Virus record (IMG/VR): IMGVR_UViG_3300042559_001081
Span: 118,700 to 138,699 of that record
Length of the DNA: 20,000 bases
Source of the DNA: an uncultured virus (IMG/VR IMGVR_UViG_3300042559_001081)
Taxonomy: Duplodnaviria; Heunggongvirae; Uroviricota; Caudoviricetes
Direction: 5' to 3' (one strand)
How positions within the stretch are numbered: the first letter of the stretch is position 1; every line of letters begins with the position of its first letter. Below are positions 3,038-19,501 of the stretch, in pieces. The notes under the pieces are model-generated. The model was not told where the DNA came from, did not search any database, and saw only the letters and a list, made by a program, of their open reading frames with translations. A program made the translations under genes and the position numbers.

Positions 3038-4048
3038 GTGTTTAAGAAAGCAGCAGTGTTTACGGACCTTCATTGTGGTATGAAGGGTAATTCAAAAATT
3101 CATAATCAGGATTGTGAAGATTTTGTTGATTGGTATATCGAAACTGCCCAAAAAAATGGATGCGATACTGGAATCTTTTGCGGTGATTGGCATCACAACA
3201 GAAATAGTTTAAATTTAACAACTATGGATACCAGTATTAGATGTTTAGAAAAACTTGGAAAAGCTTTTGACCAGTTTTTTATGTTTGACGGCAATCACGA
3301 TCTTTATTATAAAGACAAAAGAGATGTAAATTCTACAGCATTTGCAAAACATATACCTGGAATTACAACTATTAACGATATTTACGTTAAAGACGACGTT
3401 GCTCTTATACCTTGGTTAGTTGGCGAAGAATGGAAACGCATTCCTAAGATAAAATCCAAGTATATGTTTGGACATTTTGAATTACCAAGCTTTTATATGA
3501 ACGCAATGGTGCAAATGCCCGATCACGGAGAACTTAAAAGTGAGCATTTTGTAAATCAAGACTATGTTTTTAGTGGACACTTCCACAAAAGACAGAAGCA
3601 AGGCAAAATTCACTACATAGGCAATGCATTTCCGCACAACTACGCCGATACATGGGACGATGATAGAGGAATGATGATCCTCGATCGAGAAAACAATAAA
3701 GAACCAGAGTACATTAATTGGGCAGATGCTCCTAAATATCGAAATGTTATGCTTTCTCAGTTGATAGACAACAAAGATACTTTAATAAAATCAAAAATGT
3801 ATCTTCGAGTAACATTAGATATTCCTATTTCCTACGAAGAAGCAAATTTTATTAAAGAAACGTTCATGGAACAGTACGAATGTAGAGAGATTACTCTAAT
3901 TCCACAAAAGCAGATTGAAGAAATTAGCACTGACCTTGATATAGGACAGTTTGAGAGTGTTGATCAGATTGTTAGCAATGAAATTTTAGCTATCGACAGT
4001 GAAAATTTTGATAAATCTCTTCTATTAAAAATTTATAGTGAATTATGA
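3038..4048 (+). CDS. gp47: Recombination nuclease subunit, Mre11/SbcD-like (T4 gp47)
   Basis: Metallophosphoesterase motifs DLH, GDWHH, GNHD, GHFE and GHFH. GTG start with GGAG RBS. Confidence 0.93.
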   Translation: MFKKAAVFTDLHCGMKGNSKIHNQDCEDFVDWYIETAQKNGCDTGIFCGDWHHNRNSLNLTTMDTSIRCLEKLGKAFDQFFMFDGNHDLYYKDKRDVNSTAFAKHIPGITTINDIYVKDDVALIPWLVGEEWKRIPKIKSKYMFGHFELPSFYMNAMVQMPDHGELKSEHFVNQDYVFSGHFHKRQKQGKIHYIGNAFPHNYADTWDDDRGMMILDRENNKEPEYINWADAPKYRNVMLSQLIDNKDTLIKSKMYLRVTLDIPISYEEANFIKETFMEQYECREITLIPQKQIEEISTDLDIGQFESVDQIVSNEILAIDSENFDKSLLLKIYSEL

Positions 4049-5834: not shown

Positions 5835-6101
5835 ATGACTAGAAAAACTTATCCTTTAAAAGTACACATTGATGATACACACGACAAACTAGCAAAGGCG
5901 TATCTCGAATATTTCAAAGCAAACGAAATATTCGAGCAACGTCCATCTGAACCAAAACGCCGTATAGTTCGAAAATGGCTTCAAGAGATAAGACATTATG
6001 CTAAATTACGTAGAGTAGAGGTAATTGAGTCTCATCTTAACAAGCAAGAAAGATACAAACGCGGTGGCAAGCAAAAGCAAGACAAAGGGGAAGGGGTTTG
6101 A
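5835..6101 (+). CDS. Small basic hypothetical protein
   Basis: 88-aa ORF starting 2 nt after the gp46 stop; helical and basic; no recognisable family. Confidence 0.6.
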   Translation: MTRKTYPLKVHIDDTHDKLAKAYLEYFKANEIFEQRPSEPKRRIVRKWLQEIRHYAKLRRVEVIESHLNKQERYKRGGKQKQDKGEGV

Positions 6102-6579
6102 AAGAGAAATTGCAAACTTCTTATCAGAACTCTACGAAGATTCTTTTACTAGAGTACCTGATTCGGGTGCATTTACCGGAGGCAAAAACGCTCATAGACG
6201 AGATAAGCTCACTGAAGGTCAAATTAGATCCCATAAAGGCGACATCATTCCACCCGACGACTGGAAAAAATTTAACGCAGAGTGTAAAAACTATGCGGAA
6301 TTCCCGTTTCACCAATTAATTTCTTTAGGCCACATACCTTTACTCGAAGGTTGGATTTCACAAACACTAGAAGCAGCAGACCAAGGCGACATTAATATTA
6401 TCTTTATGAAGTTTAATCGTAAAGGCAGATATGTTTTATTTCAAAAAGAAAACGACTTTCAAACTTACAGGCACGTCGACTATCAAGATAAATCAGGCAA
6501 CTACTGGCGATTTACAAGCTTTGACGATTTCTTTTCCTTAAACAAAGATTTATTTCAAAAAAACTGCACAGGCATTTAA
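6064..6579 (+). CDS. Holliday junction resolvase, PD-(D/E)xK fold
   Basis: SKSKTKGKGFEREIA...RVPDSGA...GDII...NAECKNY matches Hjc-like resolvases. GTG 6064 (MASKSK...) is a more plausible start than 6025, although its RBS is weak. Confidence 0.82.
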   Translation: MASKSKTKGKGFEREIANFLSELYEDSFTRVPDSGAFTGGKNAHRRDKLTEGQIRSHKGDIIPPDDWKKFNAECKNYAEFPFHQLISLGHIPLLEGWISQTLEAADQGDINIIFMKFNRKGRYVLFQKENDFQTYRHVDYQDKSGNYWRFTSFDDFFSLNKDLFQKNCTGI

Positions 6580-6599
6580 GGCTAACATCAAACAGCACA

Positions 6600-7000
6600 T
6601 AAGGTTGGCGGGCCAGTTTATAATACCGCTGTGGAAAAGTCGGCTTGATACCCGAACACGTGACATGTTGAGACATTGCCGGTAGTAGGCTCTAAGTATT
6701 GACATTGAATGATTGCTGTCATTCAAAAACACCGCATACTCCTAAACACTTAAGGATTGAGGAACGAGCTTAAGACAGGCAGTGCAGCGTAAACAGTACA
6801 TTGAAAAGTGTATTGTTTATGACGCATTGCCTGGGTCGACGCAGGTAGGGAAAAGGTTAGAGTCCCTGGAGTTGGTGTATAAACAAAAAACCTGCTTCCC
6901 GTGTCTCGGCTAGTGCAACTCACATGAAGTCAACGACGACGGAACCTTAAAACAGGTTCCGTCTGACCAGATTAATCTACATGAAGTATTTCACTTCGTG
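6600..7000 (+). ncRNA. Candidate large structured non-coding RNA, family not recognised
   Basis: Gene-free and visibly GC-richer than the flanks, with nested stems: 6667-76/6901-10, 6686-92/6766-72, 6705-12/6719-26, 6776-85/6824-33 extended by a 15-bp stem capped by GAAA (6803-06), 6841-46/6890-95 enclosing 6847-51/6863-67, 6938-47/6954-63, and 6980-87/6993-7000. The G-U wobbles pair only on the + strand. Confidence 0.7.
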
Positions 7001-7023
7001 CTTAATATTATTTAGAAAAGAAA

Positions 7024-7065
7024 TGTGTTGAGCGATAGCGAAACACAGATGAACGTAGTTCATCT
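7024..7065 (+). other. Two adjacent hairpins with GNA/GNNA mini-loop signature
   Basis: TGTGTT-GA-GC(GATA)GC-GA-AACACA at 7024-7047 and AGATGAAC(GTA)GTTCATCT at 7047-7065. Confidence 0.6.
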
Positions 7066-7067
7066 TG

Positions 7068-7075
7068 TATAAATA
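7068..7075 (+). promoter_or_regulatory. T4-type late promoter TATAAATA
   Basis: Exact consensus, 28 nt upstream of ATG 7104, with an AAGGA RBS between. Confidence 0.85.
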
Positions 7076-7103
7076 ATATTAACAACTCTAAAGGATTTCT
7101 CTT

Positions 7104-7919
7104 ATGAAAATATCTTCTATTATCGCAGAACAAGAAAAAACAAATGAAGGCCCACTAAGAAATATAATGCCTGCATTTACTAAAACACAAAAACTAAGAA
7201 AGGCAGCTGGTAAAGCTGCCGCTGGTGCTACTAAAGATGAAATTCGACAAATGGAAGTTGAATTATTAACTTATATGGAATACTCGGGTCAAAAAAGAGC
7301 AACACCTGACGTATTAAAAAATTACTTTAAACAAAAAGGTCTTGGGAACGTAGGAACATCCGTAGTAGATGCATTTGTAGCATCTAAGAGACCAGCAGCA
7401 CCTCCTAGTGATGCTGCTGGTGCTGGTGCTGCTGGTCTAGGTGGTAATCCGCCAGCTAATCCACCAGCAAGTAGTGGACCAACACCTCCAACTGGTAATC
7501 CTCCACCTGCTCCTCCAACAGCACTTCCGCGTGGAACAAAAGCTAAATTAGCATCTGGAGAAGAATTCACTTGGCAAGGTGCTCAATGGAAGAGCAATCA
7601 AACTGGTCGTGTGGCTAGTAAAGCACAAAAGCAAGAACTTAATCAAGCTGCTGGTATGCAAACTAACAGCATGTACGAAGCTGCTGATCCAAATGCTTTA
7701 ACCAAGGGCGAAGTTAGAAAAATTATTCAACAGGTTGTACAAAAAGCATACGGTGGTGCAGCAGGATTTAGTCAAAGTAGATTTGCAGAACCTGGACAAG
7801 CCAGTGCTGCTGGACCAAGTGGTGGTTCCGCTGGCGGTGCAGGCTTACCTGATTCAATAACAAATGCTGTTAGTGGATTAACACCTGCTCAAAAAGCTGC
7901 ACTAAAGGCAATGCTCTAA
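7104..7919 (+). CDS. Late hypothetical virion protein with Pro/Ala/Gly-rich linkers (probable internal head protein)
   Basis: Late promoter and RBS. The N-terminus MKISSIIAE resembles protease-cleaved leaders ending in I/L-x-E. Low-complexity PAG tracts flank a small FTWQGAQW module. Confidence 0.65.
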   Translation: MKISSIIAEQEKTNEGPLRNIMPAFTKTQKLRKAAGKAAAGATKDEIRQMEVELLTYMEYSGQKRATPDVLKNYFKQKGLGNVGTSVVDAFVASKRPAAPPSDAAGAGAAGLGGNPPANPPASSGPTPPTGNPPPAPPTALPRGTKAKLASGEEFTWQGAQWKSNQTGRVASKAQKQELNQAAGMQTNSMYEAADPNALTKGEVRKIIQQVVQKAYGGAAGFSQSRFAEPGQASAAGPSGGSAGGAGLPDSITNAVSGLTPAQKAALKAML

Positions 7920-8150
7920 TTACCAGAACGGCTGTCCGGTTTTCTTAGCAGTATCAAGATTCTCTTTAATTAGGTGGGCTATAATTTCTCTTTCGTCAGG
8001 ACTTAGTTCGTAAGCTTCTGAGAGACTTAGCCCACCTCTCATATACCAACATAATCTTGTTAAGTCAAACTTGATTTGCTTAGTTTCGTTTTCAAGGACC
8101 TCAACTTCTTCAAGTATTTTTTCAAGAGGCCAAGTTGAGATCCTTATGCG
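7920..8150 (-). CDS. gp51-like / P2 gpE'-like chaperone extension, probably expressed by -1 frameshift from the gp26-like gene
   Basis: Not in the ORF track. 76 codons, RIRISTWPLEKILEEVEVLENETKQIKFDLTRLCWYMRGGLSLSEAYELSPDEREIIAHLIKENLDTAKKTGQPFW*, in the -1 frame of gp26. The first ATG is only at codon 37 (8042). Its stop (7922-7920) abuts the stop of the convergent gene. Confidence 0.75.
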   Translation of the reverse strand, partial: RIRISTWPLEKILEEVEVLENETKQIKFDLTRLCWYMRGGLSLSEAYELSPDEREIIAHLIKENLDTAKKTGQPFW

Positions 8151-8159
8151 AAAAAATTT
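8094..8159 (-). promoter_or_regulatory. -1 ribosomal frameshift signal (slippery site plus stem-loop)
   Basis: A_AAT_TTT_TTC at 8159-8150, followed by AAGGATCTCAACTT (8145-8132) pairing with AAGTTGAGGTCCTT (8107-8094): 13 Watson-Crick pairs and one G-U. Confidence 0.75.
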
Positions 8160-9022
8160 GATTGATCAAACGAAATTGGAACGTCTAGTTCTTCTGGTGA
8201 CCCGTTTGCTATATCTTCTTCTGAAAACTTTACCTTTAAAGGTTTAATAGAAAACTTTTTACGTTGTGTGTCGATATGATTAACAACATTTTTGTAAACA
8301 GTTTTGTCTGCGTTTGAAAAGAATTCAATAATATAGTTTTTATTTGTTACAGGATCTTCATTGTTGAATTGAACAGCAACTACACTGTTAACAATGGTGC
8401 TGATATTCATATCTGTTATTCTATTAAAGCTTTCGTTGAACTTTTGTAGCTTTTGTTCTTCTGATAGCTCATCATCATTTATTACTTTGAACAATCTCTG
8501 CTCTTCAAATGTTTTCATTGCAACTTCAGTAAATTGTTTATAATTCATTGGTGCGATTTCAAATTTAAAATCGCCTGTATCAAAAACATTTTCGTATATG
8601 TTTGCTGTTAGATAATCTAATACTGTTCGTAAATCAACTTCGTATGTTCTTTCTTCGTAAAAAGTTTTGCCATCTTCTTTTTTAAACGGAACATTGATGT
8701 TAATGTCCATCTTCTCACCGTAAGTAGCAATTCTAATAGCTACTAATATAGCATCGACGTCGATGCTAGGAATATTCCAAGCATTTTTAATATTAGGAAA
8801 ACAACTTTGAATAACGCTGGTTGTTGATTGTCCGTTTAACAGTGCATCTGGAGTTTTAAACATTAATTCGTCCTTTGCAGTCATTGCAAGAACGGGATAC
8901 TCGCCTGTGTCAGATATTTCTATAGATCCTTTAGGATAAAAATTTCCGTTGCTTGGCAATTTGATGTAAAGTTTGGGCTGTCTAAAGTGTTTTGCTAACG
9001 GGTTCATTGAGGGAGTGTTCAT
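8144..9022 (-). CDS. gp26: Baseplate hub assembly chaperone, T4 gp26-like
   Basis: IKLPSNG...VLAMTAKDELMFK...IDVDAILVAIRIATYGE and a terminal ...NFF match gp26-like proteins. GGAGA RBS. Divergent from the tape measure gene. Confidence 0.8.
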   Translation of the reverse strand: MNTPSMNPLAKHFRQPKLYIKLPSNGNFYPKGSIEISDTGEYPVLAMTAKDELMFKTPDALLNGQSTTSVIQSCFPNIKNAWNIPSIDVDAILVAIRIATYGEKMDININVPFKKEDGKTFYEERTYEVDLRTVLDYLTANIYENVFDTGDFKFEIAPMNYKQFTEVAMKTFEEQRLFKVINDDELSEEQKLQKFNESFNRITDMNISTIVNSVVAVQFNNEDPVTNKNYIIEFFSNADKTVYKNVVNHIDTQRKKFSIKPLKVKFSEEDIANGSPEELDVPISFDQSNFFA

Positions 9023-18668: not shown

Positions 18669-19232
18669 ATGAAAGTTTCACTGAGAAAAGCAAACGCACT
18701 ACAAGCAGCAATTGTTGATATGGTTGCTACATTTGAATTAGTAACAGATATTTCTATTAACGAGTTTGAAAATGCTTCAACAAAAATTAATGAAGCAAAA
18801 AACAAATTTGAATTTAATTTAAACAATCGTTCTACACTAATGGGAGTTCAATACGAAATCCGTCGTGCTGTTAGCATTGCTAATGCACAATCAGGAATTA
18901 ACAATTTTCTTGCAGAAGTAGCAATGATCGAAAAAGAAATTGCTCTTTACTCTAAGCTTTCAAAAGTACGCCCGGCACTCGAGGATGGAGTTATTTCTGG
19001 TAAACTCGAAAAGATTAAACATCGTAGCGAAGATCAGTTTTACGGTAGAGAAGATCAAGTTCAAACTTCGATCTTTGACGAATTTGAAATTAAAGAATTT
19101 AAATCTAGACTTGCTTCTTTGAAAAAAGAAAAAACTCGTTTGCAAGATCAGTTGCTTGAACTTAACATTAAAACAGAAATTGAGTTAAGTATAGATTCTG
19201 TAAACTTGCTAGCACAAGCAGGAATTATCTAA
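18669..19232 (+). CDS. DIP1984-like helical coiled-coil protein (187 aa)
   Basis: AAAGGA RBS before ATG 18669; the 18600 start in the track lies in the terminator. The pattern MKVSLRKA..L / IRRAVSIANAQSGI / LQDQLLELNIKTEIEL resembles the DIP1984 family (recognised by eye). Confidence 0.65.
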   Translation: MKVSLRKANALQAAIVDMVATFELVTDISINEFENASTKINEAKNKFEFNLNNRSTLMGVQYEIRRAVSIANAQSGINNFLAEVAMIEKEIALYSKLSKVRPALEDGVISGKLEKIKHRSEDQFYGREDQVQTSIFDEFEIKEFKSRLASLKKEKTRLQDQLLELNIKTEIELSIDSVNLLAQAGII

Positions 19233-19237
19233 GTTTT

Positions 19238-19501
19238 GGTAGTATAGCCTACTTGCTTTAGGTGAGTAGGCAAACTACCCGGTAGTAGGAAAGAGAAGAG
19301 GATAGGTTACTGTTTCCTTGAAAGAAACATATGTCCGTAATAAGACTCCGGTTTTATTAACCCTGATTGTGTGCTCTAGCGTTTTATTATACCCTTGTTG
19401 GTCTGCATTTTGCTCGCTAGAAATAAACATTCCGTTGCACATTGTGGGTTGCACTTTGTTTTTTGCAAGTTGCTTTACTTATTACTCACTTTCCTACACT
19501 G
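19238..19501 (+). ncRNA. Candidate structured ncRNA with a 7-nt periodic UUGY array
   Basis: Hairpin 19238-19279. Long-range closing helix GTAGGAAAG (19285-93)/CTTTCCTAC (19489-97), extended by 19280-83/19498-501 and 19298-307/19477-87. Internal stems 19311-29, 19338-59 (cUCCGg tetraloop) and 19375-81/19415-21. Confidence 0.72.
19435..19476 (+). repeat. Six tandem TTGY-NNN heptamers
   Basis: TTGCaca TTGTggg TTGCact TTGTttt TTGCaag TTGCttt. Confidence 0.85.

Follow-up and report, generated by a model that had tools for sequence, protein, structure and literature searches.

The DNA analyzed here (hereafter the window) makes up the final 20 kb of the IMG/VR virus record IMGVR_UViG_3300042559_001081, which has a length of 138.7 kb and is estimated to be 39% complete; its source is an uncultured giant T4-like phage. 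We focus on positions 6596-7001 of the window. In the reading that we tentatively favor, giving it somewhat less than an even chance, this interval is the gene for a compact noncoding RNA (ncRNA) of ~400 nt on the + strand: a diverged paralog in what we refer to as the twin-box family, acting as a stand-alone molecule whose two identical boxes recognize a partner. The twin-box family itself, which belongs to uncultured giant T4-like lake phages, is widespread and barely described, and its front part is already in Rfam.

A gap of 524 nt free of open reading frames (ORFs) separates a PDDEXK_15 nuclease gene from the gene for a 271-aa protein (6580-7103); the only ORFs inside it, on both strands, encode 34-60 aa. 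Since the insertions and deletions of relatives in this gap (1, 4, 8 and ~46 nt) are not multiples of three, the gap is considered noncoding. The + strand has a minimum free energy of -163.9 kcal/mol, compared to -126.4 +/- 6.3 for 100 shuffled sequences (z -5.95), and the z value for the - strand vs shuffles is -3.42. An earlier reading, made without database searches (the sequence-only reading), had proposed a gene-free gap at this place, filled by a large, multi-domain structured RNA on the + strand. Both proposals hold: ORFs in the gap do not exceed 60 aa, the + strand folds better than shuffled controls, and both syntenic homologs and covariation were found, as discussed below.

The same reading had seen no signature of a group I or group II intron, RNase P or tmRNA, in agreement with the Rfam 15 covariance models and ARAGORN; the latter detected no tRNA or tmRNA in the window. 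At the gathering thresholds, the window gave no match to any of the 4227 families in Rfam 15, GOLLD, ROOL, HEARO/omega RNA, raiA and OLE included, which confirms for the window that it lacks a match to a known Rfam family. Scanning 6400-7250 at E values up to 10 yielded chance-level hairpin matches only (the top one was mir-503, E 0.085), and there was no Rfam 15 match in the 17 relatives' loci scanned. The idea of a lone new class did not survive, however: the RNA is a divergent paralog within a widespread family, part of which is already in Rfam (RF01718).

Conservation and fold of the group A RNA

Relatives of the locus were found via the nuclease protein (34 viral loci), a 26-nt core motif (eight viral loci) and a 23-nt version of this motif (seven metagenome loci). 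Close relatives among them form "group A". After removal of duplicates, the group A alignment (A5) comprises 10 distinct sequences, the window and nine other uncultured-phage contigs, which are 70-93% identical across the aligned parts. Conserved blocks in the relatives start at 6596 and stop at 6985.

On this alignment, 91 base pairs in 17 helices could be placed, with 91.1% of the cells paired vs 35-40% when the 3′ partners are slid by one to three columns. Changes on both sides of a pair occur in 31 of the 91 pairs, in contrast to seven to nine in the slid controls and a mean of 15.7 in shuffled alignments, and none of 500 shuffles reaches 31. The covariation score is 0.258 compared to 0.06-0.08 in controls. 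Moreover, G-U pairs on the + strand are common, both in group A and in 82 canonical relatives of the wider family. Compensatory support in group A covers P1 to P6 plus two hairpins at 7025-7064 [Table 1]. Other parts do not vary: the pairing 6631-35/6976-80, P7 (6847-67) and P9 (6938-63) are invariant, apart from one pair in P9 that changes on one side only. The unpaired CUCCUAAACA and GGAACGAG and the loop of P7 are likewise invariant.

The helices that the sequence-only reading had drawn fared differently. Its ~25-bp GAAA-capped hairpin corresponds to P6 (6776-6833), where compensatory changes are seen; because the distal part is missing in relative L171, P6 is regarded as a variable peripheral stem. 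Its pseudoknot between ACACC (6729-33) and GGUGU (6874-78) is likewise upheld, as most sequences retain the pairing. Its counterpart in L036 and L169 is, by eye, GCACU/AGUGU; MAFFT offsets both, which lowers the counted figure in Table 1. In contrast, the long-range helix 6667-75/6902-10 that was thought to close the multibranch domain finds no support: 81.7% of the cells are paired, none of the nine pairs has changed on both sides, and the 5′ strand is partly deleted in two of the 10 sequences (L004 and L167). This helix also competes with the local helix P3, which has compensatory pairs and encloses an insert varying from ~17 to ~55 nt among relatives. The alignment instead favors a predicted closing helix between 6631-35 and 6976-80. 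Being invariant across group A, this helix can give no covariation signal and is therefore unproven. Possible analogs were recognized by eye in other lineages, CCGUCAAG/CUUCAUGG in L006 and CCUUGA/UCAGGG in L016.

Table 1. Features of the RNA and of its surroundings, in window positions.
Feature	Position	Strand	Observations
PDDEXK_15 nuclease gene	6025..6579	+	Pfam PF24608, E 1.1e-25; phrog_244 ("RusA-like resolvase" in PHROGs); context, outside the RNA
Structured RNA (twin-box RNA, divergent group A paralog)	6596..7001	+	Extent set by conservation; ~400 nt
P1 hairpin GGCGG/CCGCU, loop GCCAGUUUAUAAUA	6607..6630	+	100% paired; one compensatory pair (AGUGG/CCACU in L038)
Proposed closing helix, 5′ strand GUGGA	6631..6635	+	Pairs with UCUAC 6976-6980 (within box 2); RNAalifold consensus; invariant in 10/10
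P2 hairpin UCGG/CCGA	6640..6655	+	2/4 pairs compensatory; outer pair UA 4, CG 3, GC 3
P3 helix AUGUUGA/UUGACAU	6665..6705 (6665-71/6699-6705)	+	3/7 pairs compensatory; 95.7% paired; closes variable insert
P4 hairpin GAAUGAU/GUCAUUC, conserved loop	6707..6724	+	95.7% paired; one compensatory pair
ACACC, 5′ strand of long-range pairing	6729..6733	+	Pairs with GGUGU 6874-6878; 76.6% of cells paired as aligned
Single-stranded CUCCUAAACA	6739..6748	+	Invariant in 10/10
P5 helix CUUAAG/CUUAAG enclosing conserved GGAACGAG (6761-6768)	6749..6774 (6749-54/6769-74)	+	4/6 pairs compensatory (CUUGAG/CUCAAG; CCGUUGUC/GACACGG)
P6 long GAAA-capped hairpin, length-variable	6776..6833	+	10/18 pairs compensatory
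GGUCG, proposed partner of UGACC 6964-6968	6834..6838	+	RNAalifold; 96% paired, one-sided changes only
P7 core hairpin AGGGA/UCCCU, 11-nt loop AAAGGUUAGAG	6847..6867	+	Invariant in 10/10
Box 1, CUCA + CAUGAAGU	6919..6930	+	Exact repeat in box 2
P9 hairpin GACGGAACCU/AGGUUCCGUC, then conserved UGACC	6938..6968	+	100% paired in group A
Box 2, UCUA + CAUGAAGU	6976..6987	+	Exact repeat of box 1
ACUUCGUG, complementary to box sequence	6993..7000	+	GAAGU/ACUUC kept in 9-10/10; 96% paired, no covariation
Two conserved hairpins, GUGUU-GAGCGAUAGCGAA-AACAC and GAUGAAC-GUA-GUUCAUC	7025..7064	+	Separate conserved block 7029-7076; compensatory changes
271-aa protein gene, no assignment	7104-7919		Downstream of the gap
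Baseplate hub gene	8144-9022	-	

Twin boxes and the wider family

In every lineage the 3′ domain consists of two parallel modules, each composed of the 3′ strand of a helix, (R)UGAC, 5-7 nt, CUCA (module 1) or UCUA (module 2), and the box. The window has this layout, with UGACC at 6964-68 in module 2 and UGCA without a spacer in module 1. The box is 7-9 nt long and purine-rich; the two modules of any one RNA carry an identical box, and the box differs from RNA to RNA, as illustrated by CAUGAAGU in the window and by GAUAAUG, GAUGAAG, GGUAAAG, GGGAAAUAG, CCACAGG and CGAAAU across other lineages. An exact direct repeat of at least 7 nt at the expected offsets is present in 75 of 94 sequences, as 36 distinct strings, vs 10% of 1880 shuffles. 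Within the family the spacing from box to box is fixed at 49-68 nt, the boxes flank a conserved hairpin, and a conserved YYYA precedes both of them. Box 2 is followed by an AT-rich spacer.

That ACATGAAGT is repeated at 6922 and 6979 had been noticed in the sequence-only reading, and because twin identical boxes recur across lineages, this repeat is a defining feature of the family. In a near-identical genome of 330 kb (G001) these are the only two copies of ACATGAAGT; a search of both strands of G001 with YYYA+CATGAAG likewise returned only the two boxes, with no other copies or complements. The similar CACATAAGGT at 6596 sits on the 5′ edge of the conserved block and is not a third box. In 74 sequences, no segment complementary to the box recurs at a fixed place inside the RNA. 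In the window, ACUUCGUG and box 2 were scanned as a terminator-like hairpin. As explanations of the boxes, CsrA-type GGA sites, sigma-70 promoters (with a spacer of only 11-12 nt) and mini-ORFs were dropped, each being inconsistent across lineages.

Most of the 34 nuclease-linked loci have a gap of 500-650 nt after the nuclease gene. They fall into several sequence groups that blastn links only in part, and all groups other than A share a hairpin with the loop UACCGNNNAACCG (RGGG-UACCGNNNAACCG-CCCY). Scanning IMG/VR with this hairpin pattern returned at least 120 viral loci. Nearly all of the 120 loci listed share the flanking context by eye; L137 and L055 are doubted. Among the matches listed, 84 sequences are less than 96% identical and form clusters of 42, 13, 11 and eight plus 10 singletons. 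With the two doubtful singletons excluded, 82 of the 84 make up the family alignment (A2). In A2 the core stem, the proposed counterpart of P7, is 98.3% paired, and one of its pairs is GC in 53 sequences, AU in 17, CG in four and UA in four. The 3′ hairpin, equivalent to P9, is 92.2% paired with compensatory changes in five of seven pairs. Three helices taken from the largest cluster hold at only 59-70% across all clusters.

Where does group A belong? In the window, P7 matches the family core hairpin in place and is of similar size, while its loop (AAAGGUUAGAG) differs from UACCGNNNAACCG. A profile of the 3′ domain (R1) was built from 30 non-A sequences (alignment A3); it is sequence-only because RNAalifold proposed no pairs. 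Run against group A, it scores the cognate site in L004 with E 0.0045. With filters off, the cognate site ranks first in the window (6909-6989, E 0.012, 10.8 bits), in L005 (E 0.028) and in L041 and L036 (E 0.11 for both), and in L038, the fifth group A source, it went unreported. By eye, group A and the remainder have in common CUCC...GGAAC and a GCUAGUG ahead of box 1. Group A is placed in the family because the profile placement, synteny, module layout and by-eye motifs agree. Relatives with a short gap (L017 at 3771-3866, and also L018-L022) carry the twin-box domain too; in L017 it scores E 2.6e-10 and has the boxes GCAUGAUG, and an ORF called over it on the opposite strand is probably spurious.

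G001 and a 382-kb relative (G002, the genome of L005) each contain a second copy, found with R1 on the whole record. In G001 it is located at 311,625-311,710 (E 1.6e-5; locus L294, ~311,300-311,900); in G002 it has E 4.4e-6 (locus L295, ~25,500-26,100). By eye, both loci are complete canonical family members, with the boxes AGAUAGA and AGAAAAAG. Each of the two genomes therefore has a minimum of two diverged copies, which differ in their boxes. No second copy was found in the window's own record, which is incomplete.

A permissive Rfam scan of 16 loci matched RF01718 (Polynucleobacter-1) in L054 (110.6 bits), L059 (96.8 bits) and L079 (92.4 bits). The matches sit ~115-250 nt upstream of the core hairpin, so that in one sub-lineage (c3-type) RF01718 makes up the 5′ domain of this long RNA. 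The 3′ domains of these three loci are among those from which R1 was built. RF01718 recognizes none of the other clusters, nor group A or the second copies: the window stays below the gathering score (37 bits) and has no match even at E values up to 10, and L294 and L295 have none at E up to 1. Nevertheless, the Rfam motif and the window RNA share a fresh-water origin and, by eye, a first hairpin whose loop reads GGCC..AUA as well as the motif CUnUCC...GGAMCGA. They differ in that the Rfam motif is 141 nt long and comes to an end short of both the core hairpin and the twin boxes. Polynucleobacter-1 appears in Weinberg et al. 2010 with "y" for RNA and "y" for cis-regulatory, and with 16 representatives from Burkholderiales and from fresh water/estuary (PMC2864571).

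In cultured phages, blastn with the window gap and two canonical relatives gave no match. An nhmmer search with a three-sequence profile returned group A only. With the 3′-domain model, PA5oct has no match, Salicola phage SCTP-2 reaches E 0.158 only, and a match in Vibrio phage 2.275.O (E 0.0065) is by eye coding sequence without family features. Scanning genome contigs (596 Gb) with the core pattern listed 120 matches, about the chance expectation; one of these 120 (L277) fits the wider profile, and no host can be named from them. Literature searches on structured or noncoding RNAs of jumbo phages and on GOLLD/ROOL-type classes yielded no description of a twin-box RNA, and for Polynucleobacter-1 PMC2864571 was the only paper found.

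Possible roles of the twin-box RNA

In the reading that we favor, the conserved core would act as a scaffold presenting two identical single-stranded boxes. These boxes would be the working end and recognize a partner outside the folded RNA that is itself present twice or symmetric, i.e., a pyrimidine-rich nucleic acid bound through base pairing, or a dimeric protein. The combination of a conserved scaffold with identical, fast-evolving, purine-rich boxes that lack an internal partner is the reason for regarding the boxes as the recognition end. The RNA would be a stand-alone molecule, a bivalent binding platform and no leader or trailer of one gene, and the gp47-gp46-nuclease transcript would probably release it from its 3′ end. 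Several points weigh against this reading. The stand-alone RNA is a prediction from sequence, and among the public runs that match the stretch none is recorded as RNA. Part of box 2 (UCUAC) is predicted to pair with 6631-35, hence the box would not be wholly single-stranded, and a box could find a pairing partner in the ACUUC downstream. The two boxes could in principle be kept identical by gene conversion, and they could act in cis on DNA. Finally, the membership of group A is supported by a weak profile score (10.8-13.2 bits, with rough E-value calibration), synteny and motifs recognized by eye.

The main rival to a stand-alone RNA is a cis-acting transcript of a replication origin, which we consider unlikely. 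In this model the folded RNA, a pre-primer, positions box 1 for pairing with the template strand at box 2, and the resulting RNA-DNA hybrid primes DNA synthesis. There are precedents: in ColE1 RNA II an upstream G-run seeds the persistent RNA-DNA hybrid that primes replication, R-loops prime DNA synthesis at T4 oriF and oriG, and hybrids are at their most stable when the RNA is purine-rich and the DNA pyrimidine-rich. As in these systems, the transcript would act on its own template, an upstream segment repeats a downstream one, and an AT-rich stretch and hairpins lie downstream. A requirement for pairing between RNA and template would elegantly explain why the boxes are identical and lack a complement in the RNA. 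The purine-rich boxes, the AT-rich spacer 3′ of box 2, the 11-nt periodic repeats upstream in several lineages, the two copies per giant genome and the proximity of the recombination genes gp46 and gp47 also fit. This likeness is, however, read from sequence prerequisites only, and the elaboration of the twin-box core goes far beyond the needs of a T4 origin; known T4 origins do without an elaborate conserved RNA fold, and invariant loops together with a pseudoknot-like core across many lineages would be unusual for a primer. Moreover, the systematic difference between CUCA and UCUA before the boxes has no role in priming, intergenic DNA is AT-rich anyway in this phage of 35% GC, and there is no skew signal at the locus. 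Weaker still, in our view, is the case for a DNA-level element, for instance direct repeats bound by a protein, or a site of recombination or packaging; we regard it as very improbable. Direct repeats and hairpin-forming inverted repeats can also be features of DNA, and even the - strand folds better than shuffles, but compensatory changes preserve pairing in at least nine helices, the many G-U pairs are on the + strand only, the + strand folds far better than the - strand, and the boxes are nowhere else in the genome.

Two further explanations keep the RNA and give it another purpose. It might be a cis-regulatory or stabilizing untranslated region, either a 3′ trailer protecting or controlling the nuclease mRNA or the 5′ leader of the downstream gene, which strikes us as slightly less plausible than an origin transcript. 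The RNA shares its strand with the upstream gene and begins ~17 nt past the stop codon of that gene with no promoter found between, a small nuclease gene is upstream in 35 of 53 loci (the window and 52 representative loci whose flanks are complete), and Polynucleobacter-1 is listed as likely cis-regulatory (PMC2864571). Yet the varied neighbors of the twin-box family argue against such a role. The upstream genes encode two unrelated nuclease folds or no nuclease at all, and the downstream genes are unrelated and often convergent, a baseplate hub gene on the opposite strand in 18 of the 53. The size and the invariant core also exceed those of a usual trailer. Processing, by the RNA itself or by an enzyme, with the boxes as twin cleavage or ligation sites that release or circularize the ~57-nt hairpin segment between them, is in our judgment improbable. 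It would account for identical sequences flanking a conserved hairpin at a fixed spacing, for the YYYA before both boxes and for the nuclease gene that is often adjacent. On the other hand, no known self-cleaving ribozyme in Rfam 15 matches, no internal guide is complementary to the box, and the adjacent nucleases have DNA-type folds and are dispensable. Two joints (6620 to 6941 and 6638 to 6936), seen in contigs of a single run that may be RNA, leave out the middle of the molecule and retain no bearing on the segment between the boxes. Contigs of this kind do not inform on expression, ends or strand.

The stand-alone, partner-binding RNA can also be set beside other large phage RNAs. We know of no counterpart of the twin identical boxes in GOLLD or ROOL; there is no Rfam match to either, the twin-box RNA is smaller (~400 nt), and no self-complementary loop pairs were identified in it. 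GOLLD and ROOL are like it in being large, intricately folded, phage-borne and discovered by comparative genomics (10.1101/2024.12.08.627333). Large RNAs with a conserved tertiary-style architecture are rare, and past well-supported cases each led to new biochemistry. The family is abundant in lake giant phages (at least 120 contigs, with at least two diverged copies per genome in G001 and G002), and its evolutionary signature, two direct-repeat boxes that change together without a complement in the RNA, is unusual; this signature points to a programmable recognition function or an RNA-primed origin. More speculatively, and with doubts clearly greater than those attached to the favored reading, the family may constitute a new functional class of RNA, with a pseudoknotted scaffold, two rapidly evolving specificity boxes of 7-9 nt and paralog-specific targets, which would act as a bivalent guide or decoy or as a programmable origin primer, Polynucleobacter-1 being a fragment of it. 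If true, these would be bivalent guide/decoy RNAs or programmable origin primers without a described counterpart. The family also shows that a motif described in 2010 covers no more than the 5′ part of a considerably longer RNA, which changes how this Rfam motif should be modeled and searched for.

Neighboring genes and transcription

The window encodes a gp55-type late sigma factor, the gp47 and gp46 nuclease subunits, the PDDEXK_15 nuclease, the baseplate hub, a T4-type portal, a prohead protease and the gp23 capsid protein. The latter is 67-71% identical to its counterparts in Vibrio phage 2.275.O, Sinorhizobium phage Phosso and Pseudomonas phage PA5oct. Public sequencing runs that contain the stretch are lake-water and riverine metagenomes.

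Among the 53 loci, the same-strand gene upstream of the RNA belongs to a cluster of ~145-aa proteins in 30 and to PDDEXK_15 in five, the window included, the remainder being other genes. A sample of the ~145-aa proteins examined with Pfam are SegE-type GIY-YIG nucleases that extend scarcely beyond the catalytic domain. Where the gene downstream is not the hub gene, it is unrelated or of unknown type. The window, with its nuclease gene ahead of the RNA and the hub gene beyond it on the - strand, fits an arrangement that is typical of the family, not universal. In most relatives (L041, L047, L050, L054 and others) a GIY-YIG gene takes the place of the window's PDDEXK_15 gene, and L041 is itself a member of group A; this looks like non-orthologous replacement of a small nuclease at one site. 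No nuclease gene lies close to the second copy in either G001 or G002. The RNA is accordingly independent of any one neighbor, and this speaks against its being a dedicated leader or trailer as well as against an obligate RNA-nuclease machine. In Vibrio phage 2.275.O (L293, record positions 303,998-306,777), a P-loop NTPase gene, probably the counterpart of gp46, is followed by a 68-aa ORF on the opposite strand and a baseplate gene, with no gap, small nuclease or RNA. As this phage is without the block, the nuclease plus RNA represent an insertion/deletion difference between lineages.

Sigma-70-like promoters, i.e., a AGTTGACA -35 box and a -10 element, are present at ~2100, ahead of gp55, and at ~2983, ahead of the gp47-gp46 operon, while the stretch from 5800 to the RNA yielded none. 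This suggests early transcription of the operon by the host polymerase that runs into the RNA; co-transcription with the operon, followed by processing of the RNA as proposed in the sequence-only reading, would be plausible and is compatible with the sequence. Two promoter candidates were rejected: TATAAATA occurs once in the window (at 7068) vs 2.0 expected, and AGGCTAWMW occurs once vs 1.5 expected.

In L016, L026, L028, L009, L012 and L014, tandem repeats with an 11-nt period are found within the 40-60 nt that immediately precede the RNA (CTAACAC three times; TAGGCA/AAGGCAC three to four times; AACTAACATTT three times). The window has one or two degenerate units only (GGCTAACATCAAACAGCACA). 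These repeats might serve as promoter elements or as sites resembling iterons.

The two hairpins at 7025-7064 are probably a separate cassette outside the RNA core. In the first, G-A pairs occur in tandem and the loop is GAUA (GAGCGAUAGCGAA), and the second has a C(GUA)G cap; next comes TATAAATA (7068-7075), and the ATG at 7104 lies 29 nt beyond it. The two-hairpin motif is present 3′ of the RNA in other lineages as well, even where the next gene is convergent.

Elsewhere in the window, the 225-nt gap between the convergent genes for the 271-aa protein and the baseplate hub (7919-8144) contains a long inverted repeat, GGTGGGCTA ... TAGCCCACC, which is probably a bidirectional terminator. A 160-nt intergenic stretch within 19225-19400 also has inverted repeats, GTAGTATAGCCTACT ... 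AGTAGGCAAACTACC.

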